NCBI GenBank assembly: GCA_038329965.1
Contig: JBBQNN010000006.1
Location: 26,357-90,356, forward strand
Reading direction: 5' to 3'
Length of the DNA: 64,000 nt
Source of the DNA: Mycobacteriales bacterium
Lineage (GTDB): Bacteria > Actinomycetota > Actinomycetes > Mycobacteriales > QHCA01
Shown here: positions 1 through 27,965 of the stretch, in pieces
Position numbering within the stretch: the first letter of the stretch is position 1
Layout: each line of letters starts with the position of its first letter
Notes under the pieces: generated by a model
Databases searched by the model: none
Seen by the model: the letters and a program-made list of their open reading frames with translations, nothing else
What the model was told of the DNA's origin: nothing
Program-made: the position numbers and the translations under genes

Positions 1-2
1 CG

Positions 3-1031: not shown

Positions 1032-1056
1032 CAGGCCGCCTGGCGGCGGGACGCGG

Positions 1057-3618
1057 CTAGCGGGCGATGACCGGCTGCGACCGGGACGAGGACACGCTGG
1101 TGTTCACCCCGTCGGTGGCCTGGACGACGAAGGCGTACTGCTGGCCGCTCACCAGGCCGGGGAATACCAGTGACGTGGCGGTGGGACCGGCCTGGCCGGT
1201 CTTCCTGGCCCCGCTGGAAACCCTGACGGCCACGACGATGTAGCTGGTGACGATGCAGCCGCTGTGCACGGCCGGCGTCCAGGTCGCCTTCGCCGACACG
1301 ATCTTGTCCGTCGTCGAGCCGCTGGCGGCGGTGCCGATGACGGGGGCCTTGCAACGCGTGCGCAGCGGGCTGGCCGAGCCTGGCGCGGACATGTCGGACT
1401 CGTTGCCGGCCCGGTCGGCCGCCGACACGACGTAGGTGTAGGTGGCGCCCGGGACCAACTGCCGGTCGACGAAGCTGAGGCCGGTCGGGGTGGCGATCGG
1501 GATCGGGTCGCCGTTGCGGTAGACGCGGTAGCCGCCAACGGCGACGTCGTCCGTACCGGCGGCCCAGGTCAGCCTGATCGTCGTCGAGTCGGTCGCCGTG
1601 GCCGTCAGGGCCTGCGGGGCCGACGGTGGGTTCGTGTCGGCAGACAGTACGGTCGTCGCCGGCACCTGCATCGAACGCGCGGACTCGTTGCCCGCGGCGT
1701 CGAAGGCCGACACCGAGTAGGCGTAGCTGGCACCCGAGGTGAGGCCGTTGTCGACGTAGCGCGGGCTGGTGACCCGGGCGATCGGGGTGGTCGCGCCGGC
1801 GCGGTAGACGTGGTACCCGGTGACCGCCGTGTCGTCGGTGCTGACCGTCCAGAAGAGCGTGACCCGGGTCGGGCTGTCCGCGACGGTGGTCACGGCGTCG
1901 GGTGTCGAGGGCGCGGTGACGTCATTGCTGACGACGGCCGGGGCCGTCGTGACGGTCACCGGGCTCGACCGGCCCGACAGGTTGCCGGCGCCGTCGAGTG
2001 CCTGGACCGAGTAGGCGTGCGACGAACCGGCGGCAAGGCCGGTGTCGTCGAAGATCAGTGTGGTGCTGCCCGTCGTCGCCAGCAGTACGTCGTCCCGGAA
2101 CAGGCGGTAGCCGGTCGGCCCGACGTTGTCCGCGGCAGCGTTCCAGGTGACGAGCACGCTGTTGACCCCGGTGGCCGCGGCCGCCAGCCCCGTCGGGGCC
2201 TCCGGCGCGGTGCCGTCAGGGACGCCTGCGGTGGACCCGCTCACCGGAACCGAGCCGGCGGACTCGTTGGCCGCGAAGTCGACGGCCGACACGCGGTAAC
2301 TGTGCGTCGATCCGGGAGCCACGTTGGTGTCGCTGAAGCCGGTCGCGCCCTCGACGAAGGTCAGCGGCGACGGCTGACCGTCTCGGTAGACCCGGTAGCC
2401 GCTGACACCGAAGGTGTCCGCGCTCTGCCCCCACGACAGGTCGATGCGGGTGGGCGCGACCGGCACGGCTGCGAGACCGGTCGGCGTGCTCGGCGGTGAG
2501 ACGTCCTGCGTGGCGGCCGTGGTCGCGCCGGTGACTGCGGGCGACGAGGCGTTGCCGGCCTGGTCGACCGCATCCACCGCGTAGCTGTGCGCCGACCCGG
2601 CGGCCAGTCCCGAATCGACGTACGTGGGGCTGGTGACGGTGGCAACCGGCGTAGCGGAGCCGTCCCGGAACACCCGGTAGGCGGGCCCGCCATAGGCGTC
2701 GGTAGAGGAGTCCCAGCTGAGCCGGACCGTGCCGGTGCCGGTCGCCGTGGCGACCAGGTTGACCGGCGCGGACGGCGCAACGCTGTCCGCGAGCGCCGGC
2801 CGCTCCACCTGGCCGTTGATCTGGAACAGGTTCGTCGAGATGGTGTCCACTCCTGCCCCGCCGACATCCGGGCCGGTGACGCGGAAGTAGTTGCCCGGCT
2901 GGTTGTCCGCGTCGACGATGCGGCTGCCGGTGATCGCGTGGCGGACCGGCCAACTGCCGAGGAAGCCGGCCGGAGCGGCCGGGGCGACCGCGGGATCCCA
3001 ACCGAGGAACGGGCTCGCCGGGCCGCCGAGAGCGAGTGCCGGGTTGCACCCGGCGGGTGCTCCGGGCGAGGCTGCACAACCGGCGTCCACGGTGTAGTCG
3101 ATGGACCGCAAGCCCGAGGCGGTAGCACGGAGCCGGGTCGACCCCCAGGGATAGGCGACCGTGTACAGCTGGCCAGGGACGAGGTTGTCGATGCGCAGGC
3201 GCAGCCGCCCGAAGACGGCCTGCTTGCCCGGCTCGGGACAGGCGCTCACCGTGCCGCAGTCGACGTGCCCGACGAATCCGCCGGAGAGTGACACCTGCAG
3301 GAAGGCGTTGCCGCCGCCGGCGGTCGGCATGTTGGCGTTGGCCGCGTAGTAGAAGGACTCCGTCGGCAGGTTGCCGGTGCTCACCGATGGCGGCAGGCTG
3401 GCGTTCGGGACGGTAGCGCCGGTGAAGCAGTTCGTGGTCGAGGTGATGCAGGGGCGCAGGCGCAGCCCGGTGGCGTCCTCGTACCAGGCCGGAAAGCCCG
3501 TGCTGGGGTCGATCGGGCCGATCGCCGACAGCACTGCATGCGCCGGTGCGAGCGTGGTGAGTTGCACGATGACGAGGCTGAGCAAGAGGGTCGCCAACGC
3601 GGCGGCAGTTCGCCGCAT
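1057..3618 (-). CDS. secreted fibronectin type III repeat protein (853 aa)
   Basis: Start moved to ATG 3616-3618 (MRRTAAALATLLLSLV...APAHA signal peptide; ATGA overlap with upstream stop). Five tandem ~95-aa Fn3 repeats (..L.W..S.D...V.GYRVYR.G..) plus a divergent C-terminal Fn3. The upstream part of the 1096-aa ORF is Arg/Pro-rich junk. Confidence 0.85.
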   Translation of the reverse strand: MRRTAAALATLLLSLVIVQLTTLAPAHAVLSAIGPIDPSTGFPAWYEDATGLRLRPCITSTTNCFTGATVPNASLPPSVSTGNLPTESFYYAANANMPTAGGGNAFLQVSLSGGFVGHVDCGTVSACPEPGKQAVFGRLRLRIDNLVPGQLYTVAYPWGSTRLRATASGLRSIDYTVDAGCAASPGAPAGCNPALALGGPASPFLGWDPAVAPAAPAGFLGSWPVRHAITGSRIVDADNQPGNYFRVTGPDVGGAGVDTISTNLFQINGQVERPALADSVAPSAPVNLVATATGTGTVRLSWDSSTDAYGGPAYRVFRDGSATPVATVTSPTYVDSGLAAGSAHSYAVDAVDQAGNASSPAVTGATTAATQDVSPPSTPTGLAAVPVAPTRIDLSWGQSADTFGVSGYRVYRDGQPSPLTFVEGATGFSDTNVAPGSTHSYRVSAVDFAANESAGSVPVSGSTAGVPDGTAPEAPTGLAAAATGVNSVLVTWNAAADNVGPTGYRLFRDDVLLATTGSTTLIFDDTGLAAGSSHAYSVQALDGAGNLSGRSSPVTVTTAPAVVSNDVTAPSTPDAVTTVADSPTRVTLFWTVSTDDTAVTGYHVYRAGATTPIARVTSPRYVDNGLTSGASYAYSVSAFDAAGNESARSMQVPATTVLSADTNPPSAPQALTATATDSTTIRLTWAAGTDDVAVGGYRVYRNGDPIPIATPTGLSFVDRQLVPGATYTYVVSAADRAGNESDMSAPGSASPLRTRCKAPVIGTAASGSTTDKIVSAKATWTPAVHSGCIVTSYIVVAVRVSSGARKTGQAGPTATSLVFPGLVSGQQYAFVVQATDGVNTSVSSSRSQPVIAR

Positions 3619-5144
3619 CAGCTGAGTTCGAGAAGTGGGAAGCTGCGCCGGGACCGCGACGGAGCAAGGAAGTTCTGCCGCCGCGTGGCCGTGATACGCG
3701 GCTCGAGTCCCACGTCGCCGGGCTCGACCTTGAACTCGGCGACGAGGTCCGTCGCAGCCTGGTTGACGCGCATCCGCCGGAAATGGTCGGCTGTGGGCAC
3801 GAACGCGGAGAAGTGCAGCTTGGGCTGCTTGGAGCCGTCGGGCACGTCGAGCTCGTCGTAGCCGGGGCCGTCCACCCGGATGTGGATCGGTGTGCCGTCG
3901 GCCGCCCGGGACGAGCGGTGCAGGCAGCTGATGTGACCCAGGATCTTGTGCGTGGAGACCTGCTGCGGGCCGCTGCCGCTGGGCAACCAGCTGCCGGCCG
4001 TGCAACCCGCGCGCGCGTCGTCGGTGCCCTTGTAGGTGTTCGGGAGAAAGGTCGGACCGCCACCGTCGGTGAACTGATCGTCGTTGCCGAACGACGGCGG
4101 GTCGTTGGGGCGGTACATGTACTGCACCCGTTCCAGGTATGCCAGGTCCGCTCCGAACTCCCCTGAGTCGTCGACGAGGTAGAAGGCCGCCAGGTCCAGG
4201 ATGTTGTGGTTCAGCACCTGGATCGAACCGTTGTAGAAGTAGTCGCCGGCGATGGTGTCGGTGAGCCTCGCCGACTTGTTGCCCTGGAACGTGCAGATGG
4301 GGGGTGGCCCGAACGCGTTCGCCACCTGGTCGGCGAATCCCATCCACATCGGGGAATCGGGGTGGATCCGATTGGCGTAAGGCAGTGCGTCCTTGTCGGC
4401 GATCCGCCGGGGCATGCCGGGGCCGCCGAACATCACGCGGGCCGTGGTGATGTTGAGCAGCCCCGTGAACTTCGGCGACTGCACCGTGACGGCGTTGAGC
4501 TGGTTGCTGCCCTGCAGCCAGGCCTGCACCTCGTACAGCTTGGTCAGCGAGTCACTGCGCAGGGTGATGAGCATGTCGTTGGCCTCGATCCGCACCGGTA
4601 CGCGGAAGAAGCGCTTGTTGACCCCGGGGTTGCTCGGATGGATGTCACTCGGCCCCGGCACCGCCTCTTCCAGGGCGAACCGGCTGCGGTCGCTGAGCAG
4701 CTTCGGCATCCGCGGGGACACGACCGGGCCGGTCATGCCGCCACGCAGGCGGTTGAAGTACGGGATGCCGTACGAGGTATGGACGTACACCCCGGCCGGG
4801 CTGTTGGGGTACCAGCTCTCGATGGAGGCGAGCGCCTTGGTCAGTACGGTCTTGTCGGCCAGGGTGGGCATCCGGGTCAGTGTCACCGTGAGGAACAACG
4901 TGTAGACCGGGCCGAACCCGAACATCGTGCCGTCGATGTTGACCGGCGGCGCGAGCGTGGCGCCGATGTCGAACTGGATCGGCGGCCGGGCAGCGGTGGC
5001 CGCCGTTGCCGCCAGGGCGGCCCGCAGAGGTCCCGGGCCGGCGACGTCGAGCAGGCTGAGGGCGGAGGCGGCGAGCCCCGCTCCCGCGAGCTTGAGAATC
5101 GTGCGCCTGGCGATATCGGTGCTCTCGGTCGTGGCCTGAGCCAT
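3618..5144 (-). CDS. Tat-signal secreted protein, DyP-type-peroxidase-like (tentative)
   Basis: Start at ATG 5142-5144 (MAQATTESTDIARRTILKLAGAGLAASAL, twin-arginine signal). 508 aa. Patchy by-eye resemblance to the DyP/EfeB layout (ANDMLITLRSD, MWMGFADQ, NGSIQVLNHNILDL, KLHFSAF). Confidence 0.75.
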   Translation of the reverse strand: MAQATTESTDIARRTILKLAGAGLAASALSLLDVAGPGPLRAALAATAATAARPPIQFDIGATLAPPVNIDGTMFGFGPVYTLFLTVTLTRMPTLADKTVLTKALASIESWYPNSPAGVYVHTSYGIPYFNRLRGGMTGPVVSPRMPKLLSDRSRFALEEAVPGPSDIHPSNPGVNKRFFRVPVRIEANDMLITLRSDSLTKLYEVQAWLQGSNQLNAVTVQSPKFTGLLNITTARVMFGGPGMPRRIADKDALPYANRIHPDSPMWMGFADQVANAFGPPPICTFQGNKSARLTDTIAGDYFYNGSIQVLNHNILDLAAFYLVDDSGEFGADLAYLERVQYMYRPNDPPSFGNDDQFTDGGGPTFLPNTYKGTDDARAGCTAGSWLPSGSGPQQVSTHKILGHISCLHRSSRAADGTPIHIRVDGPGYDELDVPDGSKQPKLHFSAFVPTADHFRRMRVNQAATDLVAEFKVEPGDVGLEPRITATRRQNFLAPSRSRRSFPLLELS

Positions 5145-5193
5145 GGTGCGTGCCCTTCGGATCGAGGAAGTGCCGGGGGCGGTCACGTGCCGA

Positions 5194-5862
5194 TCAGTGC
5201 TGGTGCGGGGCGGCGGGTGCCTTGACGACGTTGGTACGGCCCAGACCGATCCGAGTGAGGCCGCCACCTGCCGGGTCGGCGTACTGCAGCCACAGCGCCG
5301 AGCCGTTGGTCGCCGTCACGAAGGTGACGCGGGCGTCCACGCTGGTACCGGGAGCGAGCAGCCCCGCCTGCAGCGTCGTGTTGGTCGCTTTGATGGGCTT
5401 GCCGACGGGTGCCGTGCCGGGCCCGACCAGGAGCTTGAACTGCCCGGCGTCGAACCCCACGGCGCGCTTGCTGGTGTTGGTGAGGCTGACCACGACATCC
5501 ACCTCGACGCTGCCAGTGCCGACGAGGTTGGACACGCCGTGCGACATTCCGCCCAGATCCTCACTCGACAATCCATTGTTGAGCAGGGCCTCGGAGGCGG
5601 TGAGCGAGCCGAAACTGGTGCGGATCGGCTGACCGAGCGTGAGGCTGGTCGATGCAGGGTTGGCGAGCGTGATCGAAGTCGCTGTCCGGCCGGTGTGTCG
5701 AAGCAGGGGGACGGCGAGGCTGATGCCCGCCACCATCACCGTCACGAGGGCGAACATCGCGACGACCAGCAGCGCTGAGCCGGCCCTCGAAACGCTCTCG
5801 TGGGCACTGTTGCGGCTCGGCCCGGGGTTCGACCGGCGGGGACTCGTGGTGGTCAGCGCCAT
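5194..5862 (-). CDS. membrane-anchored DUF4352-like beta-sandwich protein
   Basis: Start at ATG 5860-5862 (MALTTTSPRR...). One TM helix (ALLVVAMFALVTVMVAGISLAV), then a pattern like VVVSLTNTSKRAVGFDAGQFKLL...ARVTFVTA. The longer 475-aa ORF upstream is compositionally junk. Confidence 0.65.
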   Translation of the reverse strand: MALTTTSPRRSNPGPSRNSAHESVSRAGSALLVVAMFALVTVMVAGISLAVPLLRHTGRTATSITLANPASTSLTLGQPIRTSFGSLTASEALLNNGLSSEDLGGMSHGVSNLVGTGSVEVDVVVSLTNTSKRAVGFDAGQFKLLVGPGTAPVGKPIKATNTTLQAGLLAPGTSVDARVTFVTATNGSALWLQYADPAGGGLTRIGLGRTNVVKAPAAPHQH

Positions 5863-5954: not shown

Positions 5955-6551
5955 TCAGTGCAGGCGCCACGGTCCAGGGAGGTCGTGGGTCTGCTCGAAG
6001 TTGATCGTGTGGCCGGTCAGGCTGTCCGGCGTCACCCAGGTCACCCAGCCCCGGGCGCAGCCGGCCTTGGTGGACGCGTTGGGAAAGGCCGGCTGAGGGA
6101 ACTGCGGGTGCTGCACCTTGGTCGTCTGCGCGACGCGCCCGTCGGCAGCTTCGAGCACCCACGCCGGATAGTCGAAGACCACCGGCTTGGACCGGCACAC
6201 CAAGATGTCGGCGCTGGCCCAGTGCGTCGCGGGCGTTATCGGCCTGATGCCTGCTCCGGGCGCAACGTGGTCCCGGAAGGCGTAGACCGTGATGTGGATC
6301 GGCACGTCGCCGGTGCCAGGGCCGAATGCATTCGACGCCACGACGGCCTGCGTCGTGCCGAGCGGCACGGAGGGCACCTGCTGGGTGGCCGCCTGCGGCG
6401 GCTGCTTGGCAGCCGGGTCGGCCTTCGGGCCCCCACTGGAGCACGCGCTGAACAAGACGAGCACCGGCAGCAGGCAGGCGACGGTGCGCCGCAGCCGTCG
6501 ACCTTCGCGGGTGACCTGGCGATGCCTCTGGCCCGTTGTCTCGCGCGACAC
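5955..6551 (-). CDS. lipoprotein of unknown function
   Basis: GTG 6549-6551 preceded by AAGGAG at 7-nt spacing. Lipobox LVLFSAC|SSG. 198 aa. Confidence 0.65.
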   Translation of the reverse strand: MSRETTGQRHRQVTREGRRLRRTVACLLPVLVLFSACSSGGPKADPAAKQPPQAATQQVPSVPLGTTQAVVASNAFGPGTGDVPIHITVYAFRDHVAPGAGIRPITPATHWASADILVCRSKPVVFDYPAWVLEAADGRVAQTTKVQHPQFPQPAFPNASTKAGCARGWVTWVTPDSLTGHTINFEQTHDLPGPWRLH

Positions 6552-6663: not shown

Positions 6664-9600
6664 CTATCGTGCCGTGGTCTGGTTGGACGTGATCGAGTAG
6701 GCACTCGCACCCACCGCATTGATGGCCCTGACTCGGAACCGGTAGTTCTTGCCGGCGACCAGTCCGGTGAACTTGAGGCTAATCGCTGCCGCGGAAATCG
6801 GCTTCGCCCACACGGTGCTCGACACAAAAGTCGACCCGTTGTACTGGTCGGCAGCCACCAGATAGCCGGTGATAGCCGATCCACCATTATCCACCGGTGC
6901 TGTCCATTTCGCCGTTGCCGATATGACGGCATCTGTCGTCACGCCATTCGCGGCGCTGCCGATCGTCGGGGCCCCCGGAACGTTCACCGGGACGGCTGGG
7001 ATGACCGCATTGGACAGCTCCGACGGCGGCCCGGTGCCCACGGCGTTCGTCGCGGTCACCGTCAGCTGGTAGGCCGTCCCGTTGGTCAGGGCTGTGACCG
7101 TCCCCGCAAGGGCAGACCCGCCGACATCGGCCGTCTTCGTGTTGCCTGCGCCGTCCACGGCGGTGACCGTGTACCCGGTGATCGGGGAGCCCCCGTCACT
7201 GGCCGGGGCAGTCCAACTGGCACTGGCGGAGCCGTTGCCGGCCGTGGCGGTGCCGATCGTCGCCGCGTCCGGTGCTACCGCCGCGATCGGCGCAGCACCG
7301 CCGACGAGGCAGACCGGGTTGCCCGAGCCGACGTTGGCACAGTCGGCCGGCCGCGGCAGGAACCGCTGCAGTCCCCAGACACCGATCGCGGTGAACGGCC
7401 GCCGCAGGTCGCCGTAGAAGTAGTCGCCGACCGCCCAGCTCTTGCCCCCGCCTGCGCCGCCGACCATCTCCGCGTCGAAGGTCTGGCCGGGCCCCAGTTG
7501 CTGGTTGGCGGTCTGCTCGCTCTTGGGCACCCACCTGTCCCGAGGAGCCGACCAGCCGCCGAGGCTGAACACGTGCGGCTGCTCGCTGCCCGGGGTGACC
7601 ATCTCGTGGACCACCATCGGATCACCCACGTAGGCCTTCAGGACCGGCGTCGCCGGGTCGGAGCCCCCCGTGTGGAACGTGCCGGCGCTGTCACCGCTGG
7701 GTGCGTTGGCGTAGTTGATGTTCGTACCGCCCGGTTCCGCCTTGTCGGGGTAGGGCATGAAGTCCTGCGACATCGCCGGATCGTTGTCAGCCAGCAGCAG
7801 GCTGAAGTCGCGATAGTCCTTCTGTGGCGTCGTGCCGACAGCCGGCACGTGGACGTCTACCTGGGTCCCGATGTCCACCGCCGCGCCGGTCTGGGGGTCG
7901 GTGAAGGTGGCCCCCCTCTCGGCGACGACCACGGAGCCGTACAGGCCCTTCTTCTGACTGTTCGGGGTGACTGTCACACCGTCGGGGGCGACCCCACCGG
8001 TGCCGGCCATGTCCACGACCGATGCGGTGCCGACGTAGTGCGTGTCGGCATAATAGATGTAGTCACGCGTCGCACCCGGTGCGGTGTTGTTGTCCGGGCT
8101 GTAGCCCACGTTGACACCGGAGGAGTCGGCGTTGCGGTCAAGCTTGCCGACCGCGAACGACACCGGGAAAGGCCGGCCGTTGGTCAGGCTGACCTTGACG
8201 CACTCGCCCTCCGCCACGTGCATCACGAGCGGCTCGGGCTTGATGCTGCCGGCCTGGACCGCCGCGGCCCGGGAACTGTCGACGAAGACCGATCGAGCCG
8301 CCCCTGGCGTGTCCACCGCGCTGATGTTGAACGCGTGCGTCGGCGCATCGGTGGGACAGGGATTGCTCGGCGTGGTCACCGCCGGAAGGGTCGACGGGTT
8401 GGTGGCGGGAGTGCTCGGGAGCGAGGTCCCCGGTAGTGGCTTGAGGCTCGAAGAGCTGCCGCCCAGGACCCGGACGATGCCCCATGCGCCTTGCTGCAGC
8501 CGGCGGTCGTCGCCGTTGTAGTACAGGTAGTCACCTGGCTTGCTCCGACCGTTGGGGCCGTTGCCCTCCAGAGCGATCGTGTACTTCTCGCTCATGCCGT
8601 ACAGGATGGTGTCCTGCAGGGTGCCCACGGTGGATGGACTCCCGTATCCCGGATCACCCTGTGTCTTGCCGGATGCGTCATAGCTGATCCGGTTGTCGAT
8701 CGTGAACCGCTGCCCGGTGAAGTGCAGCGTGTCCATCGACGGGCCGACGTTGATCGTCCGCACCACGACCGGGTCACCGGGGTACGCGCGAGGCAACGGC
8801 GTGTTGGGGTCGCCGTACTTGTACGAGGAGAAGCGGTTGGCGGCATCCGGGCGGTCCTTGAGCGGGGCCGCCTTGAGGTTCAAGGTGGAGTAGTCGCCCC
8901 GGTCGTTGTCGTCGATCGTCCACAGCGCCAGCTCGCGGAAGCTGCCGTTGACCTTGCCGGGCAGCAGGGCCTGGTAGTTGGGCGCGCTGGGGTCGACCTG
9001 GATGTCGGCGATGGTGCCCGACGCGATCGCCTGGCCGGTGGCCGGGTCGGTGTACTTCGAGCCGGCCGGCTCGACGATCAGCTGCCCGACCAGGCCGTGG
9101 CCCCAGCCGTGGATGCCGTCGACATGGTCGTGCCAGAAGATGTTGTCGAGCTGGGTGTCGGCGTACCACTCGTACTGGATGAACTCGAAGCCGGAGTACT
9201 GCCCGGTGGCGTGGGCGTTGGACAGCGGCGCGTCGAGCGTCACCGTCTTGTTAGCCGCGTCCACCCCGACGACCTGGTGCACCTCGATGCTCTCGGTGCC
9301 CATGCCCGTACCGATGAACGGCTGGGCGGCGGCGCCGTCGGCGGTCTTGGTCTGGAATTTCGCCACGCTGGACAGGTGCAGCACGTTGTCGCCCACCGCT
9401 GCGGGCGCGGTCAGGGTCGGGTCCTCGGCCGCATACGGCCGGACCGAGTGCTCGTAGGCGAACCCGGTGGACACCCCGTCCGATCCCTGCACGTCGAACT
9501 GCACGTGGTGGATGTGGATGGTCGTCTTGGAGTTGCCGTCGAACGCGCCGACGTCGGGTAGTTCATTGGTCAGCGTGATCTTGCCGCAGTCACCGACGTT

Positions 9601-12228
9601 CATGCGCAGCGCCAGTGGGTCGGTGCGCAGGGTGCCGGCGAGCATGGCTGCCTTGTTCTGGGCCAGCACGAACAGCTTGCCCTCAGGATCGGTGACATTG
9701 CCACCGCCACCGCCGCCGCCGCCGCCACCGCCACCGCCACCGCGGACGGTGCGCAGGATGGTGACCGGAACGGCGACGATGTTGAAGTGCTTGATCGGGG
9801 TGTCGTGGCTCCCGTCAACCTGCTTGGACGGGCAGAGGCCGTCGGCGCGGTTGGCGTACGGGTCGACGGGATGCGTCGCGTCGATGACCGGTGCGGCACT
9901 GCCCCACTCGCCGAGGAACGGCGAGCCGGAGTGGCCCTTGGGACTGAACGGCGGCCGCTTCCCGACATGGGTCCGCAGCAACGGGTACGACGGGCGGCCG
10001 TCGACCGGGTTGAACAGGATCGCCGGCCGGTCGCCCACGATCTTGTCCAGCTGGTCGCCCGGCAGCAGCCCGGGATGACCGGGCACGTCGGACGCGTCCG
10101 CCCAGGCGGTCTTGTCCTCCGGCTCGCCGAGCGCCCGGTCGCCGTTGCCACCGGCGGAGGTGTCGAACTTCCAGTCCCACACCGACGGGTCCTGGCTGGT
10201 GGCCTTGACGCCCTGCGGCGGCACCTGCTGGCGCACCCAGGAGTCGAGCTTGGCGTGGCTGTCGATGGTCTGGCCGTTGTCGAACGTGCGGTTCATCAGC
10301 TGGTCGGAGGTCACCGGCGCGGCCAGCGGGGTGCGGTCCGGCAGCGGCGCGAAGTCGGGCTGGCGGGTGTTGTAGACCCGCCAGAAGCTCCACATGCCCG
10401 ACACGTAGTGCTTCGCGATGTGGCAATGGAACAGCAGGTCACCGACGGTGTGCTGCACGCCACCGGCGCCGCCTTCGAGCTCAAGGTTGTAGGACTCGCC
10501 CGGGCCGATCGACTGCGCGTCGAGCCGGTTGGAGGCGACCTCGTTCTGCGGGTGCTTGTTCAGCCGGGTGTCGGCGTAGTTCCACGACGGGTCGGCCACC
10601 GGGTTCAACCGCCACCGGTCACCACCACCGTGCAGGTGGAAGACGTGGAACTTCTCCCCGCTGGCGTGGCTGATCCGGAACTTCGTCGGGTCACCGATGT
10701 AGCCGCGGGGCATCGGCGTCGCCGGGTCACCGAAGGTGTAGGAGCTGTAGGCGTGCGACTTCTCCTTGCCGAAGGCCAGCAGCCGGTTGCGGAACGGCTC
10801 GGAGCGATAGCTCACCGCGAAGTGACCGGGGTTGTAGCTGCCGGTCAGGGAGTCGACCTGCGGGAGGGCGTGGTTGCTCTTGTCGTTGATCGTCTCGTTG
10901 TCGGAGCCGATCTCGTGGTGCATCAGGATGGCCTCGCGGAAAGCCGGCGTCGCGCCGGGGACGACGGTGGCCTCCCAGCCGGAGATCAGCGGCTGGCCAA
11001 CGACGCTGGCATTGAGGTAGGTCGAACCAGCGGGCTCGACGTTGAACATCCCGAACAGGCCGTGGTCCACCTGCGACCGGAAGCCGGGTCCTGGGTGGAT
11101 GTAGTGCGAGCCTTCCAGATTGGCATCGTTGGGAACGTAGTAGCGGTAGCTGGAGGTGTTGCCGCCGCTGACGGCCGAGTCGGCGTTCCGGCCGATCGAG
11201 TCCCCGGAGGAGGCCGTCGCGAACAACAGCCCGTCGATGTGCAGGCCGTAGCTACCGCCCGAGGCGCTGTTAGTGAAGTTGATGGTGACGCAGTCGCCCT
11301 CGTTGGCGCGGATCGACATGGGCTGGATCGGGTCGTCGCGCAGGCCGATGGAGACCTTCTGGCTGGCCTCCTCCTCGCGCACGGCCTGAAGGGCAGCCTT
11401 GGCGGTCCCTCCGGGGGCGGTCAGCAGGTTCTCCGAACGGACCCCGTTGTAGGTCGTGCTGGTGGCCACGAACATCTTGCCCTTGGGATCGTTGTCCCCG
11501 AACCGGTTGAGCGGCACCTTCACGTCGATCGCGGTGACGTCGAACGACCGCTGGTTGGCACCCGCCGGGCACGGGGCACCGGGATCGGCAACGGCAGCCG
11601 ATGCCGGCGAAGCCGCAAAGGGCATCAGGCTCAGCGTCCCGGCCGCCAGTGACACGGCAGCGATCCTGGCCGTCGGGCGGCGCCGGCCGTCGGTGCTGCC
11701 GCGTGGCCCGGTCAGTCGCGCGCGGAGTCGCGCAACGGCCGCTGTCGCACCCAGCGTGGCTGCCACCAGCGGCAGTGTCACGAGGAGCGCCAAGGCGACG
11801 TCGCGTCCGACGTTGGCGAGCACCGGCAGGTTGTTGGCCTCCGAGACGCCGAAAAGCCCCGCGTGTGCGGGGTTCGTGACGGCCAGGGCGACGGCGCCCA
11901 TCGTCGCGGCGAGCATCGCGAACATGGCGCTGCTCGCGGCGACGGTGAGCCGCTGAGCCGAGATCCGGGCGGTCAGGCTGGCGGCCGCCCAGACGGCGAC
12001 CAGCGCCAGCGGCAACGCGAGGCTGCCGTCCCGCAGCACCGTCGCGGCCAGCGGCGGCTGGCCGGTCGAGCCGCCGGCTGATGCCGTACGCAGCAGGACC
12101 ATCCAGAGACTGCCGCCGTACGCGAGCGCGACCGCCAGCGCGAGCAGTACGGCTAGGCGCGACCGGCCGGCGGGCAGGGCCCCGGCCTCGTGGTCCGGTG
12201 GCACGAGTCTGGCTACTGGTGGCCTCAT
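6664..12228 (-). CDS. giant multicopper-oxidase-domain protein with N-terminal TM domain and two C-terminal Fn3 domains (1854 aa)
   Basis: Cu-ligand motifs HVFHLHGGG, HCHIAKHYVSGMW, IHIHHVQ and WHDHVDGIHGWGHGLVG. About four N-terminal TM helices. Gly14 linker. Two terminal Fn3 domains. GAGGGA 7 nt upstream of the ATG. Confidence 0.9.
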   Translation of the reverse strand: MRPPVARLVPPDHEAGALPAGRSRLAVLLALAVALAYGGSLWMVLLRTASAGGSTGQPPLAATVLRDGSLALPLALVAVWAAASLTARISAQRLTVAASSAMFAMLAATMGAVALAVTNPAHAGLFGVSEANNLPVLANVGRDVALALLVTLPLVAATLGATAAVARLRARLTGPRGSTDGRRRPTARIAAVSLAAGTLSLMPFAASPASAAVADPGAPCPAGANQRSFDVTAIDVKVPLNRFGDNDPKGKMFVATSTTYNGVRSENLLTAPGGTAKAALQAVREEEASQKVSIGLRDDPIQPMSIRANEGDCVTINFTNSASGGSYGLHIDGLLFATASSGDSIGRNADSAVSGGNTSSYRYYVPNDANLEGSHYIHPGPGFRSQVDHGLFGMFNVEPAGSTYLNASVVGQPLISGWEATVVPGATPAFREAILMHHEIGSDNETINDKSNHALPQVDSLTGSYNPGHFAVSYRSEPFRNRLLAFGKEKSHAYSSYTFGDPATPMPRGYIGDPTKFRISHASGEKFHVFHLHGGGDRWRLNPVADPSWNYADTRLNKHPQNEVASNRLDAQSIGPGESYNLELEGGAGGVQHTVGDLLFHCHIAKHYVSGMWSFWRVYNTRQPDFAPLPDRTPLAAPVTSDQLMNRTFDNGQTIDSHAKLDSWVRQQVPPQGVKATSQDPSVWDWKFDTSAGGNGDRALGEPEDKTAWADASDVPGHPGLLPGDQLDKIVGDRPAILFNPVDGRPSYPLLRTHVGKRPPFSPKGHSGSPFLGEWGSAAPVIDATHPVDPYANRADGLCPSKQVDGSHDTPIKHFNIVAVPVTILRTVRGGGGGGGGGGGGGGNVTDPEGKLFVLAQNKAAMLAGTLRTDPLALRMNVGDCGKITLTNELPDVGAFDGNSKTTIHIHHVQFDVQGSDGVSTGFAYEHSVRPYAAEDPTLTAPAAVGDNVLHLSSVAKFQTKTADGAAAQPFIGTGMGTESIEVHQVVGVDAANKTVTLDAPLSNAHATGQYSGFEFIQYEWYADTQLDNIFWHDHVDGIHGWGHGLVGQLIVEPAGSKYTDPATGQAIASGTIADIQVDPSAPNYQALLPGKVNGSFRELALWTIDDNDRGDYSTLNLKAAPLKDRPDAANRFSSYKYGDPNTPLPRAYPGDPVVVRTINVGPSMDTLHFTGQRFTIDNRISYDASGKTQGDPGYGSPSTVGTLQDTILYGMSEKYTIALEGNGPNGRSKPGDYLYYNGDDRRLQQGAWGIVRVLGGSSSSLKPLPGTSLPSTPATNPSTLPAVTTPSNPCPTDAPTHAFNISAVDTPGAARSVFVDSSRAAAVQAGSIKPEPLVMHVAEGECVKVSLTNGRPFPVSFAVGKLDRNADSSGVNVGYSPDNNTAPGATRDYIYYADTHYVGTASVVDMAGTGGVAPDGVTVTPNSQKKGLYGSVVVAERGATFTDPQTGAAVDIGTQVDVHVPAVGTTPQKDYRDFSLLLADNDPAMSQDFMPYPDKAEPGGTNINYANAPSGDSAGTFHTGGSDPATPVLKAYVGDPMVVHEMVTPGSEQPHVFSLGGWSAPRDRWVPKSEQTANQQLGPGQTFDAEMVGGAGGGKSWAVGDYFYGDLRRPFTAIGVWGLQRFLPRPADCANVGSGNPVCLVGGAAPIAAVAPDAATIGTATAGNGSASASWTAPASDGGSPITGYTVTAVDGAGNTKTADVGGSALAGTVTALTNGTAYQLTVTATNAVGTGPPSELSNAVIPAVPVNVPGAPTIGSAANGVTTDAVISATAKWTAPVDNGGSAITGYLVAADQYNGSTFVSSTVWAKPISAAAISLKFTGLVAGKNYRFRVRAINAVGASAYSITSNQTTAR
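9701..9742 (-). repeat. (GGN)14 codon microsatellite encoding a Gly14 linker inside the oxidase gene
   Basis: Plus strand reads cca ccg cca ccg ccg ccg ccg ccg cca ccg cca ccg cca ccg. Translates as G14 in VRGGGGGGGGGGGGGGNVTD. Confidence 0.9.
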
Positions 12229-12402: not shown

Positions 12403-14460
12403 TCAGCGTCCGGCGCTCGACCGAAATTCGCTCATGAGGACCGCCGGGGGTGGCGCCACGTCGGTGGCGCGAGCTACGGGCTGGCTCACGGGCTGCCGCG
12501 GGGACGGCCCGTCGGTGGAGCGGCGGGCCGGCCGGCTGACCAGCGGCGGGCCCTGGACGTCGGTCGCGCGCCGTCTCGGCTGGCCATCCTTGAGGGTCTC
12601 TGCGTGCAGGTTGATGATGAATCGGCGCGCCGGCGACAGGGTTTGCGCCAGTATGTGGACGACCCCGGGGTGCCGGAAGGCGAATGCCTGTCCGACGGTG
12701 ATCAGGAGGCGCTCTTCGACCAGCCGGTCCAGCTCCTCGGCGATGCCGTGCAAGTCGGTGCCCACGAGGCTGGCGAGCAGCTTGGGTTCGACCGGCTGGT
12801 CGAGTACGGAAGCCACCGACAGCAGGCGATAGGCCTGCGGGCCCAGATCCCAGCAACGAGTGAGAACCCACTCGCGCAGGTCGGCCGGAAAGGTCTCGGT
12901 CAGGTCCCGCCGCCGGGCCTCCAGGTAGCCGGCCACGAAAACCGGGTGGCCGCCGGTCGCGGTGTAGAGATCGTCATCGCCGAACTCGGACAGCTCGGCC
13001 GGCTCGAGCACGTCGAGATCGATGCGGAGATCAGGTCGCAACGAACGCACTGCCTCGCGCTGCATGCCGGCCCGGTCGCAGGTCATGATCACCGCAATCG
13101 GGAGCGTCGGGCACCGCCGCCGCAGATATCCCAGGGTGGTCAGCGTGTCGGCGTCGGCCCATTGCACATCGTCCAGCACGAGGATCGCCGGAGCCGCTGC
13201 TGCCAGTCCTGACGCAAGCTGCTCCATCGCGCGCATCCGGGCAAACTCGTCGAACGGCCGGTCTTGCTCGGATCGAACCAACAATTCGTCCAGGACCGGC
13301 AGCCCCTCGTCCGACCCACTGTCGAACATCGGCCGCAGCGCCATCGACAACGCCAGATAGGGCAAGCCCTGCTCGAGATCCGAACACCGGTTGGCGCCCA
13401 CTGCCACTCCGGCCGCGCCGGCAACCCTGTCCACGAGCCGGGTCTTGCCGATTCCCCGCTCCCCGGTCACCAACACCAGGGTGAATCGGCCGCCCAGCGC
13501 CGCCGCCACCGCCGACTCCAACTCAGCGAGTTCGGCCTTGCGGCCCACAAAGGGAACTCCGGCCGGCACATCGACACTGCCGGCCTGCGCAGCGGAACCC
13601 GATCCCAGCGCCGTCCCCGGCTTGCGCGGCGGCACGTTGGCGGTCTCCGGCAACCGTGGCAGCAGCGCCGCCACATCCTCGTGCCGCAGGATCGCGAGGT
13701 GCAGGGCCACCGTCTGACCCAACGGGTCGACGCCCAACTCGTCGGCCAACAAGCGCCGGCAGCGGTCGAAGGCCGCCAGGGCCTCCTCCTGTCGCCACAG
13801 TGAGTAGTAGGCGGTCATCAGCACCTGGTAGCCGGCCTCCGCCAGCGGCGCCAGCGCCACGGCGCGCTCGGCCAGCGTCAGCGCCGCGGCCGCCTCCCCC
13901 GTCAGCAACGACAACCGGCCCGCGTCGATCAGCACCTGCACCAGACGCTGCTGATACAGCGTCCGAAGATCCTCGGCCCACTCTGAATACGGTTCGTCCT
14001 CCAGAGCAGGCCCGCGGACCAGGCCCAGCGCCCGATTGAGCGTGGCCAGGGCCGCGGCCGGCTCGGCGCCCACGGCCGCCGCTACCAGGCCGTCGAACAC
14101 GTCCAGATCCACCTCCACCTGCGACACGTCCAGCCGGTAGCCGCCGGGCTCGGTCACGACCACCGAGCCGGACGCCCGGCCGCCGGGCTGCAGAGTTCGG
14201 CGCAACACAGAAATGTAGGTTTCGAGCGTGGCCACATGATTCTGTGGCAGCGCTTCACCCCAGAGGAGGTCCGCGAGCCGGGACTTCGACACGGCGTGGC
14301 CGCGCTCCGTCACGAGAATCTGCAGGACTTGCTTCGGTTTCAAACCCGGAAAGTCTCGACCAGCCAAAATGGCGGAGCCCGAAGACACCCGCAACTGGCC
14401 GAACACGTCAATGTGCAAACGAATCTCCCCAGGTCGCGCCCACCCGGAGCGACTCCCCAT
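12403..14460 (-). CDS. SARP/AfsR-family regulator (OmpR-type wHTH + BTAD + P-loop NTPase)
   Basis: N-terminal wHTH (KQVLQILVTERGHAVSKSRLADLLWGE). BTAD (YQVLMTAYYSLWRQEEALAAFDRCRRLLADELGVDP). Walker A (VTGERGIGKTRL). Confidence 0.85.
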   Translation of the reverse strand: MGSRSGWARPGEIRLHIDVFGQLRVSSGSAILAGRDFPGLKPKQVLQILVTERGHAVSKSRLADLLWGEALPQNHVATLETYISVLRRTLQPGGRASGSVVVTEPGGYRLDVSQVEVDLDVFDGLVAAAVGAEPAAALATLNRALGLVRGPALEDEPYSEWAEDLRTLYQQRLVQVLIDAGRLSLLTGEAAAALTLAERAVALAPLAEAGYQVLMTAYYSLWRQEEALAAFDRCRRLLADELGVDPLGQTVALHLAILRHEDVAALLPRLPETANVPPRKPGTALGSGSAAQAGSVDVPAGVPFVGRKAELAELESAVAAALGGRFTLVLVTGERGIGKTRLVDRVAGAAGVAVGANRCSDLEQGLPYLALSMALRPMFDSGSDEGLPVLDELLVRSEQDRPFDEFARMRAMEQLASGLAAAAPAILVLDDVQWADADTLTTLGYLRRRCPTLPIAVIMTCDRAGMQREAVRSLRPDLRIDLDVLEPAELSEFGDDDLYTATGGHPVFVAGYLEARRRDLTETFPADLREWVLTRCWDLGPQAYRLLSVASVLDQPVEPKLLASLVGTDLHGIAEELDRLVEERLLITVGQAFAFRHPGVVHILAQTLSPARRFIINLHAETLKDGQPRRRATDVQGPPLVSRPARRSTDGPSPRQPVSQPVARATDVAPPPAVLMSEFRSSAGR

Positions 14461-14748: not shown

Positions 14749-16680
14749 TTGTCCCGAAAGGCCACGAAGTCACCCGCCGCCGACGATGATGAAGGAGCGA
14801 CCAGACGTGGCGCAGGCAGTGAGGGGGCACGGCTTGTGGCGGACCTGCTCGGGACCGGCCTGGGCCGACCGGACGACGGCCTGGGCGCGCGCGTGTCGCG
14901 CTTCACCTTCCGCCACCGCCTCCTGGCCATCGGGCTGCTCGGCGTGCTCATGGCCGGCATCATCGCCCAGTCGGTTCTCGCCGGTCTCGGTCACGTCCGC
15001 CGGTCGGACGAGGCCGTCAGTCTGATCAGCCATGCTCAACGGCTCCAACAGGACGCGGACATGATGCACGACGCGTTGCGCGCGGACGTCTACATCGCCG
15101 TACACGTCGGGCCCGGAGGTACACCCGAGGCCCGTACGAAGATCAAAGGCGCGACCACGTTGCACGATGCCACGCTGCGGAGAGACCTCACCGACATCGC
15201 ATCGCTGCACCTGACCGGGCCGGCGGCGACGTCACTGGCGAGACTGCCGAAGCAGCTCGAGGTCTATGCCCAGGCCGCTGTTTCGCTGGTCGATACGGCA
15301 CTGGCCGAGCCGGTGACGACTGCCGACCTGCTCGGCTTCGAACGCAGCTTCGACCGCCTGGTCCGGACCCAGGCCGACGTGACGGGCCAGCTCGAGGTGG
15401 ACGCCCTGGGTACCCAGCGCGGCGCGGAGGACGCCGCCGCCGACGCGCAGCGGCAGATCCTGCTGGCCTCGACAGTGGCACTGGCCGTGCTCCTGTTCCT
15501 CGCGGGGATGCTGAGCCGCATGGGCGCGCGGCTGGTGCAGCTGGTCGCACGGCAACGGGGGATGGCCGAGACGTTGCAGCAGAGCCTGCTGCCCGACCGG
15601 CTGCCGGACCTGCACGGGCTGAGCCTGGCCGCTCGCTACGTCCCCAGCGGCACCGGCGTCGAAGTCGGTGGTGACTGGTACGACGTGATCACGCTGCCCA
15701 ACGGCATCGTCGGCCTGGTCATGGGCGACGTCGTCGGGCACGACCTGCGCGCCGCCTCGGTGATGGGCCAGTTGCGCAACGCGCTTCGCGCGTACGCCCT
15801 CGAAGGGCTGTCACCCGCCCTGGCCCTCGGCCGGCTGAATCATTTCGTCCGGCAGACCGACCCCGGCGAGATGGCGACGTGCGTCTTCGGCCTGTTCGAT
15901 CCACAGGCCTCGACCCTGCTGATATCCAACGCTGGGCACTACCCGCCGCTGATCGTGGGTCCGGACCGGCAGCCGACCTTCCTCGACTATGGCGAGTGTC
16001 CCCCGGTGGGCGGCCTCGACAAGACGGTCTACACCGAAACGCTCTTCCACGTACAGCCCGGCTCGACCGTCCTGCTGTACACCGACGGCCTCATCGAGCG
16101 TCGCGACGAGGATATCCAGTCGGGCATGGCGAGACTGCGCGCCTCGGCGACCGACGGGCCGGCTGACGTCGACGAGCTGTGCGAACACCTGCTTGCGAGC
16201 CTCCTGGTGAGCCGGGCACCGGCCGACGACGTGGCCGTCCTGGCGTTGAGCGCGCAACCCAAGCTCGGCGATGAGATACGGCTGAACGTACGGGCCATTC
16301 CGGCCGAGCTGGGCCCGATGCGACACACCATCACCCGGTGGCTGCAAGAGGCCCAGGCCACTCCCGACGAGGTCTTCGAGCTCACGGTGGCCACGTGCGA
16401 GGCTGCCAGCAACGCCATCGAGCACGCCTACGGTCCGGACGGCGCCGTCTTCGAGGTCGCGGCCGCGATCCACGGCCGGTCCGTCGACATCCGCGTCACC
16501 GACGCGGGACGATGGCGGCTGGCCCGTGGGATGGACCGCGGGCGTGGCTTTACCGTGATCGGTGAGTTCACCGACACCGTGAGCGTCGACACCACGGACA
16601 GCGGCACTACGGTACGAATGCGCCGCGAGTTGGCCGCGGTGAGGGCTCCGGAGCCCTTGCACACGACAGGAGCAGGGTAA
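14749..16680 (+). CDS. membrane-associated SpoIIE/PP2C phosphatase fused to an RsbW-like HATPase domain
   Basis: Two TM segments flank a helical sensor region. PP2C core (GDWYDVITLPNGIVGLVMGDVVGHD). C-terminal ATCEAASNAIEHAY...GRGFTVI. Start codon uncertain. Confidence 0.8.
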   Translation: MSRKATKSPAADDDEGATRRGAGSEGARLVADLLGTGLGRPDDGLGARVSRFTFRHRLLAIGLLGVLMAGIIAQSVLAGLGHVRRSDEAVSLISHAQRLQQDADMMHDALRADVYIAVHVGPGGTPEARTKIKGATTLHDATLRRDLTDIASLHLTGPAATSLARLPKQLEVYAQAAVSLVDTALAEPVTTADLLGFERSFDRLVRTQADVTGQLEVDALGTQRGAEDAAADAQRQILLASTVALAVLLFLAGMLSRMGARLVQLVARQRGMAETLQQSLLPDRLPDLHGLSLAARYVPSGTGVEVGGDWYDVITLPNGIVGLVMGDVVGHDLRAASVMGQLRNALRAYALEGLSPALALGRLNHFVRQTDPGEMATCVFGLFDPQASTLLISNAGHYPPLIVGPDRQPTFLDYGECPPVGGLDKTVYTETLFHVQPGSTVLLYTDGLIERRDEDIQSGMARLRASATDGPADVDELCEHLLASLLVSRAPADDVAVLALSAQPKLGDEIRLNVRAIPAELGPMRHTITRWLQEAQATPDEVFELTVATCEAASNAIEHAYGPDGAVFEVAAAIHGRSVDIRVTDAGRWRLARGMDRGRGFTVIGEFTDTVSVDTTDSGTTVRMRRELAAVRAPEPLHTTGAG

Positions 16681-19383: not shown

Positions 19384-19594
19384 GAGCTCTCCCCTTGTTG
19401 GCCGCAGCCGAGTTGACGAGCGGTGCGCACACAATGGGTCCCGCACCTTGGGGATTTCTTTCAACGCCCTACTGGCGCGACCGGGGTGGGTAGTACGACC
19501 TTCGACGTATTGACCCGGCCGGTCCACCAGCTCACAGTCGACCTTCACGCGGCACCCGACCGCAGGTGCCGGAGAGCCGAGGAGTCTCACGAGA

Positions 19595-27831: not shown

Positions 27832-27965
27832 ATGACAGAAGGTAGTATCTGCCCCGTTCCCTCCCGGATCGCCTCCGGTTTCAATGCCGTAACAGTCGAG
27901 GGTCAACCTCGTACAGGCGTGCAGACAGGAACCCCCTAGACGTCGGTGATCGGCCCGGGACAGAT

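Follow-up and report, generated by a model that had tools for sequence, protein, structure and literature searches.

The 64-kb stretch of actinobacterial DNA analysed here (hereafter the window) carries a giant open reading frame (ORF) whose product contains the copper-binding motifs of a multicopper oxidase in an order that is not that of the laccases. This raises the questions of what kind of oxidase the gene encodes, how motifs spread over such a long chain could build a copper centre, and which substrate the enzyme might oxidise.

A giant oxidase gene of the MnxG type

Judged from its sequence, the 1854-aa protein is an actinobacterial six-domain multicopper oxidase of the MnxG type, an uncharacterised member of the bacterial manganese oxidase family (Table 1). 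The GC content at the three codon positions of the ORF (0.64, 0.53 and 0.89) follows the pattern typical of real genes in DNA of 68% GC, the value of the surrounding sequence, and we therefore consider the gene to be real; the high third-position value, together with homology, rules out an artefact of high GC content. More than 1271 homologs were found (>1,200 sequence clusters), with the genome matches coming almost entirely from Actinomycetota and relatives present in 182 stretches of species-representative genomes. Several homologs have been named 'manganese oxidase' by JGI, and actinobacterial homologs of the Bacillus-type MnxG had been counted earlier (bioRxiv 10.1101/2022.11.10.515945).

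The protein is colinear with MnxG of Bacillus sp. PL-12 (Mnx complex, PDB 9BXA), the stretches of domains D1 to D6 matching 9bxa_A in order with an E-value of 2.5e-82 at about 22% identity. Among NCBIfam models the best was that of MnxG, NF041487, with 99.4 bits in five matched stretches; since the curated cut-off of this model is 3100, the protein is not an NF041487 equivalog. The Pseudomonas-type MnxG that this model represents is comparably large, the profile spanning 1894 positions, and belongs to a different clade.

Table 1. Features of the oxidase gene and its immediate neighbours (positions in the window; aa, residues of the oxidase).
Feature	Nucleotides	Residues	Strand	Basis or remark
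MnxG-like six-domain multicopper oxidase gene	6664..12228	1854 aa	-	ORF and translation; stop codon included
N-terminal membrane region	11587..12228	1-214	-	Hydropathy scan
Cupredoxin domain 1, degenerate N-terminal-type	11014..11586	215-405	-	Pfam Cu-oxidase_3, 33-47 bits
Cupredoxin domain 2	10354..11013	406-625	-	Pfam Cu-oxidase_2, 30 bits; aligned to MnxG up to residue 363
HVFHLHGGG (HxxHxH)	10621-10647	528-536	-	Ligands invariant in 74/74; aligns with HVFHYH of Bacillus MnxG
HCHIAKHYVSGMW (HCHxxxHxxxxM)	10390-10428	601-613	-	Ligands invariant in 74/74; aligns with HCH..GMW of MnxG
Conserved linker D2-D3, about 170 aa	9838..10353	626-797	-	Many invariant residues
Cupredoxin domain 3	9049..9837	798-1060	-	Predicted to supply the remaining four trinuclear His
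IHIHHVQ (HxH)	9499-9519	904-910	-	Ligands invariant in 74/74; aligns with FHIHFV of MnxG
WHDHVDGIHGWGHGLVG (WHxH)	9085-9135	1032-1048	-	Ligands invariant in 74/74; aligns with FFHDH of MnxG
Cupredoxin domain 4, copper-free	8443..9048	1061-1262	-	Unit alignment; colinear with MnxG 558-826
Cupredoxin domain 5, copper-free	7909..8361	1290-1440	-	Unit alignment and model; HxH position is AVG
Cupredoxin domain 6, copper-free	7294..7908	1441-1645	-	Unit alignment, model and MnxG alignment; H1552 alone retained
Two C-terminal fibronectin type III (FN3) domains	6667..7281	~1650-1854	-	Pfam fn3, E 1e-21, two stretches
Putative lipoprotein, about 186 aa	5955..6510 (start approximate)		-	Lipobox LFSAC; directly downstream of the oxidase
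Small single-pass membrane protein, 222 aa	5197..5862		-	DUF4352-like domain; motif LGGMSHGV
SARP/AfsR-type regulator	12403..14460		-	Trans_reg_C, BTAD and AAA_16; directly upstream of the oxidase

Copper ligands and their order

An exact motif scan of the protein returned HxxHxH (528), HCHxxxHxxxxM (601), HxH (905) and WHxH (1032), in an order that, like the presence of six domains, sets it apart from the three-domain laccase type, whose single chain of three cupredoxin domains carries HxH, WHxH, HxxHxH and HCHxxxHxxxxM in that sequence. The non-canonical order reported in the preliminary description is thus real, with motif coordinates right to within about 20 nt at most, and it recurs unchanged in 120/120 listed homologs. 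With 46 histidines in 1854 residues about 1.1 HxH motifs would be expected at random, whereas four were observed, and these are exactly the four ligand motifs. The pattern is not due to chance.

Following the canonical (textbook) assignment for multicopper oxidases, we take H528, C602, H607 and M612 to be the type-1 ligands, H601 and H603 to be type-3 ligands and H531, H533, H905, H907, H1033 and H1035 to be trinuclear ligands. The protein thereby has a full type-1 set (His, Cys, His, Met) and eight trinuclear histidines, as a multicopper oxidase should, and it scores above the cut-offs of both Pfam Cu-oxidase_3 and Cu-oxidase_2. In the alignment to 9bxa, H607 is matched by residue 340, at which the H340A mutation was made. 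All 12 residues are invariant in the 74 aligned homologs, as is H1040 in the last motif, and H1044 of the same motif is found in 73/74.

This invariance bears on the possibility that the copper motifs are relics in a non-catalytic surface or adhesion protein, comparable to coagulation factors V and VIII. The loss of ligands from four of the six domains, the FN3 domains and the fold matches to factors V and VIII would fit such a protein; however, the retention of 12/12 ligands among 74 homologs that are 55–85% identical over D1–D4 argues for strong selection on catalysis, and we regard loss of activity as very improbable.

Domain layout and ligand loss

The proposal of three tandem laccase-like units held up well, as D1-D2, D3-D4 and D5-D6 align pairwise with 24–26% identity and E-values of about 1e-16, and the structure models match both 9bxa_A and ceruloplasmin. 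Pfam alone detected cupredoxin domains D1 to D3 and no further ones. The AlphaFold models had a pLDDT of 79 and a pTM of 0.82 for D1–D4 and values of 86.5 and 0.88 for D3–D6, with domain 2 modelled at low confidence (pLDDT about 50–65). In Foldseek searches the best match of both models was 9bxa_A (E 4e-52 and 2e-54, TM 0.62 and 0.67), followed by ceruloplasmin and factors V/VIII and then by two-domain laccases, with TM-scores, normalised to the laccase, of 0.57–0.76. There is thus little doubt that the protein has a six-domain architecture of three tandem two-domain units with a single copper set.

Ungapped alignment of the units bore out the selective ligand loss, with full ligand sets kept in D2 and D3 alone. 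The degenerate counterparts named beforehand were all located. Those upstream lie in domain 1, where the HxH position reads LHIDG (aa 329–333, with H330 and D332) and the WHxH position reads IHPG (H378, within YIHPG..NVEP, aa 376–399). Those downstream are LHFTGQRF (aa 1168–1175), YLYYNGDD (1234–1241) and GAWGIVRV (1247–1254), followed by PHVFSLGGW (1551–1559), YFYGDLRR (1603–1610) and GVWGLQRF (1616–1623). D4 and D6 retain just the first His of HxxHxH (H1169 and H1552, respectively) and no ligand of HCHxxxHxxxxM, the HCH position being YNG in domain 4; D1 retains H330 and H378, and D5 retains no ligand. Several of these vestiges are well conserved: H330 and D332 are invariant, H1552 is found in 73/74 homologs, H1169 in 64/74 and H378 in 56/74.

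Domain 2 would thus hold the sole type-1 copper site as well as four of the eight trinuclear ligands. We propose that the three units, each resembling a two-domain small laccase, pack as a pseudo-threefold ring, with the blue copper bound by H528, C602, H607 and M612 in domain 2 alone, and with the trinuclear cluster built at the D2/D3 interface alone by H531, H533, H601 and H603 from D2 and H905, H907, H1033 and H1035 from D3. This interface would set the C-terminal-type domain of unit 1 against the N-terminal-type domain of unit 2, which accounts for a motif order of HxxHxH, HCH..M, HxH and WHxH instead of that of laccases; the equivalent interfaces D4/D5 and D6/D1 have lost their ligands. 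A substrate would pass single electrons, one by one, to the type-1 copper, from which the His601-Cys602-His603 bridge would carry them to the trinuclear cluster, where O2 would be reduced to water. The convergence of the D2 and D3 histidines is predicted from homology and from fold superposition (9bxa, TM 0.62), not from geometry. For architecture and mechanism taken jointly, leaving the substrate aside, we estimate a probability of about 0.8.

A single trinuclear site across the boundary of units 1 and 2 had been anticipated, and its predicted placement agrees with the alignment to Bacillus MnxG and with the literature. According to a paper of 2013, all bacterial six-domain oxidases analysed there, and the algal Fox1, have their trinuclear site at the border of domains 2 and 3, and the mononuclear site of the bacterial enzymes analysed lies in domain 2 only (PMC3600357). 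We adopted this ligand placement as the mark of the MnxG type, and the protein has it: a type-1 site in domain 2 only and trinuclear ligands shared by domains 2 and 3. Romano 2017 (PMC5622069) is silent on domain placement. The motif order itself is therefore not new: it has been published as the signature of six-domain oxidases of the MnxG/Fox1 type. As the arrangement has already been described, the protein does not represent a novel class of oxidase.

How the order arose is a separate matter. In a pseudo-threefold ring D2/D3 and D6/D1 are geometrically equivalent, so that a ceruloplasmin-like gene rearranged or circularly permuted by one unit would yield the same order as differential loss from an ancestor with a trinuclear site at each of the three unit boundaries. 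Differential loss predicts vestigial ligands at the other boundaries, and these are present (H330, D332, H378, H1169 and H1552). The units share an identity of only about 25%, which indicates that the triplication is old. Differential loss is also favoured by PMC3600357, and we consider a permutation improbable.

The segments between and around these domains differ in part from those of Bacillus MnxG. The D2-D3 linker, at about 170 aa, is longer than that of Bacillus MnxG (about 100 aa; the alignment to 9bxa skips from residue 363 to 465) and was modelled with a pLDDT of 74–94 per 10-residue block, save two blocks at 65–69. Domain 3 contains a run of 14 glycines (nt 9700–9741) and, between its two motifs, an insert of about 85 aa that is absent from Bacillus MnxG. 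The C-terminal region also matched the FN3 domains of titin and contactin in a PDB sequence search.

Comparison with other oxidases

In ceruloplasmin domains 1 and 6 share the trinuclear cluster, and domains 2, 4 and 6 each have a type-1 site. Together with hephaestin and factors V/VIII, the second-best fold matches, ceruloplasmin shares with the actinobacterial protein a six-domain pseudo-threefold cupredoxin ring, but sequence identity to this group is about 10%, and the ceruloplasmin ligands are missing: instead of the HCHxxxHxxxxM ligands D6 has G, D, L, F and V and D4 has Y, N, G, R and A, and D1 keeps two of its four histidines. In the two-domain laccases SLAC and Ssl1 adjoining subunits share the cluster, one contributing its domain 2 and the next its domain 1, and the same geometry is proposed for D2/D3; those enzymes are homotrimers with three active sites, whereas here a single chain would bear a single surviving site. 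Chlamydomonas Fox1, whose trinuclear ligands likewise lie in domains 2 and 3, is a eukaryotic ferroxidase that retains further mononuclear sites (PMC3600357).

Bacillus MnxG is the closest counterpart, with the same six cupredoxin domains and the same motif order; its type-1 site likewise belongs to domain 2 and its HxH/WHxH pair to domain 3. It differs in having 1227 aa and neither the membrane region nor the FN3 domains that are both found in the actinobacterial protein, and in acting together with MnxE and MnxF. A Bacillus Mnx structure is already in the PDB, and the motif order alone adds nothing new; the interest of the gene lies in its representing a large, mainly actinobacterial, uncharacterised clade that has a membrane anchor of its own and, nearly always, a small partner gene.

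Membrane region and location

In the N-terminal region there is an Arg-rich loop (RLRARLTGPRGSTDGRRRPTAR) besides four hydrophobic helices; a fifth helix, of a signal-like or anchor kind, ends in ASPASA. The region had no match in Pfam or NCBIfam. A mis-called start was ruled out, as the region is kept in the family consensus and homologs have comparable lengths before the first motif. The hydrophobic segments and the Arg-rich loop agree with the positive-inside rule, and conserved Cys pairs are seen in the family consensus of D1, D3 and D5, both of which support a body of the enzyme outside the cytoplasmic membrane, presumably tethered by the N-terminal helices and with the two FN3 domains at its tail. 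An extracytoplasmic, membrane-tethered metal oxidase is accordingly the most likely function that we infer for the protein.

In Pedococcus a gene of 195 aa lies upstream of the oxidase homolog. Considered as a possible source of the N-terminal 215 aa, it showed no similarity to them and proved to be a homolog of the DUF4352-like protein encoded in the window.

Gene neighbourhood and possible substrate

The DUF4352-like small membrane protein is a near-universal neighbour across the oxidase family, with a near-invariant His (G-x-x-H-G/N), whereas the putative lipoprotein, which had no match in Pfam, NCBIfam or PDB, is conserved in the closest loci only (L002, L004, L006, L008 and L013). No homolog of MnxE or MnxF was found beside the gene: compared by sequence similarity only, the two small downstream proteins match no chain of 9bxa at E-values up to 10. 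In related loci with full flanks, a MopA-like animal haem peroxidase lies less than 10 kb from the oxidase in 16 of 40 cases and copper-handling genes (CopC/CopD and DUF1775) lie nearby in 8 of 40; neither the peroxidase nor CopC/CopD occurs within the window.

By analogy with the family and from the gene neighbourhood in relatives, the most likely substrate would be Mn(II) or a different metal ion, although we put Mn(II) itself at somewhat below even odds. The JGI names, the MopA-like neighbours in relatives and the earlier count of actinobacterial Bacillus-type MnxG homologs are hints in this direction. The same six domains could alternatively serve a different substrate, in a ferroxidase or cuprous oxidase (compare Fox1, ceruloplasmin and CueO) or a cell-surface oxidase of phenolic or humic compounds. 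Fox1 and ceruloplasmin, both six-domain relatives, are ferroxidases (PMC3600357), the score against the MnxG model lies below its equivalog cut-off, and the CopC/CopD and DUF1775 genes of some loci, like the His/Met motif of the small neighbour, suggest the handling of copper. Yet the closest characterised relatives in both sequence and fold are the manganese oxidases MnxG, and the MopA-like peroxidase recurs near the gene, so that a substrate other than Mn(II) seems to us rather doubtful.

If Mn(II) is indeed oxidised, biological formation of manganese oxides would extend to many common soil actinomycetes, and the enzyme would be a Mnx-like one that does not require MnxE/F. A more speculative suggestion, and on balance an unlikely one, is that the actinobacterial clade forms a distinct machine for the oxidation of Mn or another metal, with its own N-terminal tether, with the DUF4352-like protein as a copper donor or subunit replacing MnxE/MnxF, and often clustered with a MopA-like peroxidase. 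Were this true, manganese oxidation would have gone unrecognised in many soil Actinomycetota.

As for the remaining neighbours, the DUF7405 gene (3618–5267), which had no PDB match, was rejected as a conserved partner since only two related loci besides the window have DUF7405, and the ORFs at 17605–19641 and 25375–28272 matched no Pfam or NCBIfam model. BTAD regulators, such as the one encoded directly upstream of the oxidase, recur at related loci.

Domain architecture and copper ligands

The oxidase belongs to the known MnxG-type family of six-domain multicopper oxidases, of which it is a new and uncharacterised member. Its gene lies in a window of 65–71% GC, and GC contents of 0.64, 0.53 and 0.89 at the three codon positions mark it as a real gene. 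Pfam places Cu-oxidase_3 at residues 304–400 and Cu-oxidase_2 at 527–614, with a pair of fn3 domains at the C-terminal end. The tandem arrangement of three laccase-like units proposed in the preliminary description is borne out by internal alignment: the two-domain units spanning residues 215–630 (cupredoxin domains D1–D2), 845–1262 (D3–D4) and 1290–1640 (D5–D6) are pairwise 24–26% identical (E ∼ 1e-16). Applied to one domain at a time, Pfam recovered D1 with Cu-oxidase_3 (33 bits) and D2 with Cu-oxidase_2, whereas the Cu-oxidase_3 score of D3 (16 bits) fell below threshold. There was no Pfam match to D4–D6, which are recognized solely through the internal alignment and the fold.

All four copper-ligand motifs described earlier were found, in the same order and at most ∼20 nt from the positions reported, as was every degenerate counterpart quoted with them. 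The oxidase has 46 His residues and exactly four HxH triplets, which coincide with the four motifs; by our own arithmetic ∼1.1 would be expected at random. The ligand positions of the three units match up without gaps, as judged from the unit alignment and direct reading, and unit-by-unit comparison thus reveals a single complete type-1 site (D2) and a single full set of eight trinuclear His (D2/D3 boundary), whereas D4/D5 retains none of the eight and D6/D1 two. The suspected selective loss of ligands is therefore real, the complete set being confined to D2 and the D2/D3 boundary.

Residues at the copper-ligand positions of the three units
Position	D1–D2	D3–D4	D5–D6
HxH, odd domain	H330-I-D332	H905-I-H907	A1359-V-G1361
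WHxH, odd domain	H378-P-G380	H1033-D-H1035	lost
HxxHxH, even domain	H528/H531/H533	H1169/G1172/R1174	H1552/S1555/G1557
HCHxxxHxxxxM, even domain	H601/C602/H603/H607/M612	Y/N/G/R/A	G/D/L/F/V

Relationship to MnxG

The best NCBIfam model was manganese-oxidising multicopper oxidase MnxG (NF041487), with a score of only 99 bits where the cut-off is 3100, and the best PDB match was 9BXA chain A, MnxG of Bacillus sp. PL-12 (E 2.5e-82), with matching stretches in domains 1–2, 3, 3–4 and 5–6, in order. The motifs of the oxidase and Bacillus MnxG pair one to one (HVFHLH with HVFHYH, HCHIAKHYVSGMW with HCHLYPAFGIGMW, IHIHHV with FHIHFV and FWHDH with FFHDH). In multicopper oxidases the final His of HCHxxxH is a canonical type-1 copper ligand. 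Entry 9BXA is titled "Mnx H340A complex", and residue 340 of chain A, an Ala, aligns with H607 at this position, so the Bacillus protein has a motif of the same form in the same domain.

Among six-domain copper proteins, the ferroxidases of Chlamydomonas and Dunaliella carry trinuclear His in domains 2 and 3, with leftover ligands recorded at the remaining interfaces, a pattern attributed to differential loss from an ancestor bearing three trinuclear sites (Vasin et al., 2013; PMC3600357). The ligand pattern of the oxidase is exactly as described there; the seemingly non-canonical motif order is thus the known signature of the MnxG-type family. Assembly of a single trinuclear site across a unit boundary, suggested earlier, is supported by the ligand set at D2/D3, placed as in MnxG, and was already known. 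A specialist would find the motif order unsurprising, and the interest rests on candidate features of the actinobacterial clade. Within Actinobacteria, a preprint from 2022 tallied 29 homologs of Bacillus-type MnxG and 47 of MopA (10.1101/2022.11.10.515945).

The oxidase is about 22% identical to Bacillus MnxG and, unlike it, has an N-terminal membrane region of ∼214 residues, a longer D2–D3 linker, an insert of ∼85 residues in D3 (between HxH and WHxH) with a weak SWM_repeat match, and two C-terminal FN3 domains that vary among homologs. No MnxE or MnxF, the accessory subunits of the Bacillus complex, was detectable by sequence similarity among its neighbours. The first hairpin loop of D3 contains a run of 14 Gly residues, encoded by mixed GGT and GGC codons, that could be slippage-prone; around it, most homologs in the alignment have a gap (57 of the 74, counted at the H808 column, 22 residues upstream).

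Predicted structure, location and activity

AlphaFold2 models from an alignment of 74 sequences had pLDDT 79.4 and pTM 0.82 for residues 215–1270, and 86.5 and 0.88 for residues 845–1645; confidence was low in D2 (pLDDT about 50–65). Foldseek searches of the PDB ranked 9bxa_A first for both (E 3.8e-52, TM 0.62 and E 2.3e-54, TM 0.67, respectively), followed by ceruloplasmin and factors V/VIII and then by two-domain laccases (laccase-normalised TM-score 0.57–0.76). Two-domain laccases assemble as trimers in which each trinuclear site is built where domain 2 of one subunit meets domain 1 of its neighbour. By this geometry and homology to MnxG, the eight trinuclear His would converge at D2/D3.

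The type-1 and trinuclear ligand set is complete, conserved and positioned as in MnxG: motif order is identical in all 120 homologs listed, and all 12 copper ligands are invariant in the 74-sequence alignment. So are H330, D332, H375, H438, H766, H908, H1006 (in the D3 insert) and H1040, and residues 389 and 1044 are His in 73 of 74 sequences. H330 and D332 fall outside the canonical set, at the vestigial D6/D1 site. The extra conserved residues at 330, 332, 375, 389, 438, 766, 908, 1040 and 1044 could form an additional metal or substrate site.

Hydropathy analysis indicated four N-terminal hydrophobic helices (about residues 24–46, 66–88, 95–118 and 141–165), followed by a loop rich in Arg and then by a fifth segment, hydrophobic and signal-like, that ends in ASPASA. 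Under the positive-inside rule, the helices and loop would place the body of the oxidase outside the membrane, and the conserved Cys pairs C220/C313, C799/C881, C1291/C1343 and C1630/C1640 are consistent with an extracytoplasmic protein. The N-terminal region, which shares one chain with the oxidase and is conserved throughout the actinobacterial family, had no Pfam or NCBIfam match.

By the general multicopper oxidase mechanism, the D2 type-1 copper would oxidise the substrate, with the H601-C602-H603 bridge carrying electrons on to the trinuclear cluster at D2/D3, where O2 would be reduced to water. Mn(II) is our best guess for the substrate, at somewhat less than even odds, because the sole characterised relatives are Mn oxidases and a MopA-type peroxidase is encoded near many relatives.

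Phylogenetic distribution and gene neighbourhoods

Homologs form at least 1271 protein clusters at E ≤ 1e-10, named "multicopper oxidase domain-containing protein", "FtsP/CotA-like multicopper oxidase" or "manganese oxidase". Relatives are encoded by 182 stretches of species-representative genomes, 80 of which were kept as loci. Nearly all are from Actinomycetota (Frankiaceae, Mycobacteriales, Pseudonocardiales, Dermatophilaceae/Intrasporangiaceae, Nocardioidaceae, Ilumatobacteraceae, Solirubrobacterales, Gaiellales and Rubrobacteraceae), with a few from Chloroflexota. The nearest genome match is a Frankiaceae MAG (65% identity) and the nearest protein (82%) comes from a JGI metagenome.

In 16 of the 40 full-flank loci, a large animal haem peroxidase that carries Ca-binding repeats of the hemolysin type and represents the MopA class of Mn oxidases is encoded no more than 10 kb from the oxidase gene. 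CopC/CopD is encoded nearby in eight of the 40, and the window has neither.

The most interesting by-product of this analysis is a small DUF4352-like protein whose homologs are encoded beside the oxidase gene, on the same strand, in 71 of the 80 loci; the other nine are mostly short contigs or have almost no upstream flank. The His of its G-x-x-H-[GN]-[VI] motif is nearly invariant, with a Met-rich stretch instead in three loci. The protein shows no similarity to MnxE/F and may be a copper donor or subunit of the oxidase.

Features of the window and of related loci (L001, L003)
Feature	Nucleotides	Strand	Residues	Remarks
Oxidase ORF	6664–12228	minus	1854 aa	
N-terminal region	11587–12228	minus	1–214	
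HVFHLHGGG	10621–10647	minus	528–536	
HCHIAKHYVSGMW	10390–10428	minus	601–613	
Gly14 run	9700–9741	minus	830–843	
IHIHHVQ	9499–9519	minus	904–910	
D3 insert	∼9184–9435	minus	∼932–1015	
WHDHVDGIHGWGHGLVG	9085–9135	minus	1032–1048	
Putative lipoprotein	∼5955–6510	minus	∼186 aa	lipobox LFSAC; downstream, between oxidase and small His-motif genes
Small single-pass membrane protein	5197–5862	minus	222 aa	weak DUF4352 match; LGGMSHGV
DUF7405 protein	3618–5267	minus		further downstream
RGI-lyase-like beta-sheet domain + two FN3 protein	1057 to ∼3600	minus		beyond DUF7405 gene
SARP/AfsR-type regulator	12403–14460			upstream of oxidase gene
SpoIIE phosphatase/anti-sigma kinase-like gene	14749–16680			beyond the regulator
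Long ORF	17605–19641	minus	678 aa	coding-like GC3
Long ORF	25375–28272	minus	965 aa	coding-like GC3
Small-protein homolog	L001 7022–7609			same strand as oxidase gene
MopA-like peroxidase with FN3 domains	L001 1–5259; L003 3688–9267			

The DUF7405 protein was found, besides the window, in two related loci only. The putative lipoprotein, with no Pfam or PDB match, is conserved in the closest loci only (L002, L004, L006, L008 and L013), and the regulator and SpoIIE-like set recurs in L002, a locus 68% identical. Neither long ORF had a Pfam or NCBIfam match; copies of the 678-aa one, ∼62% identical, are present in two related loci (L043 and L053).
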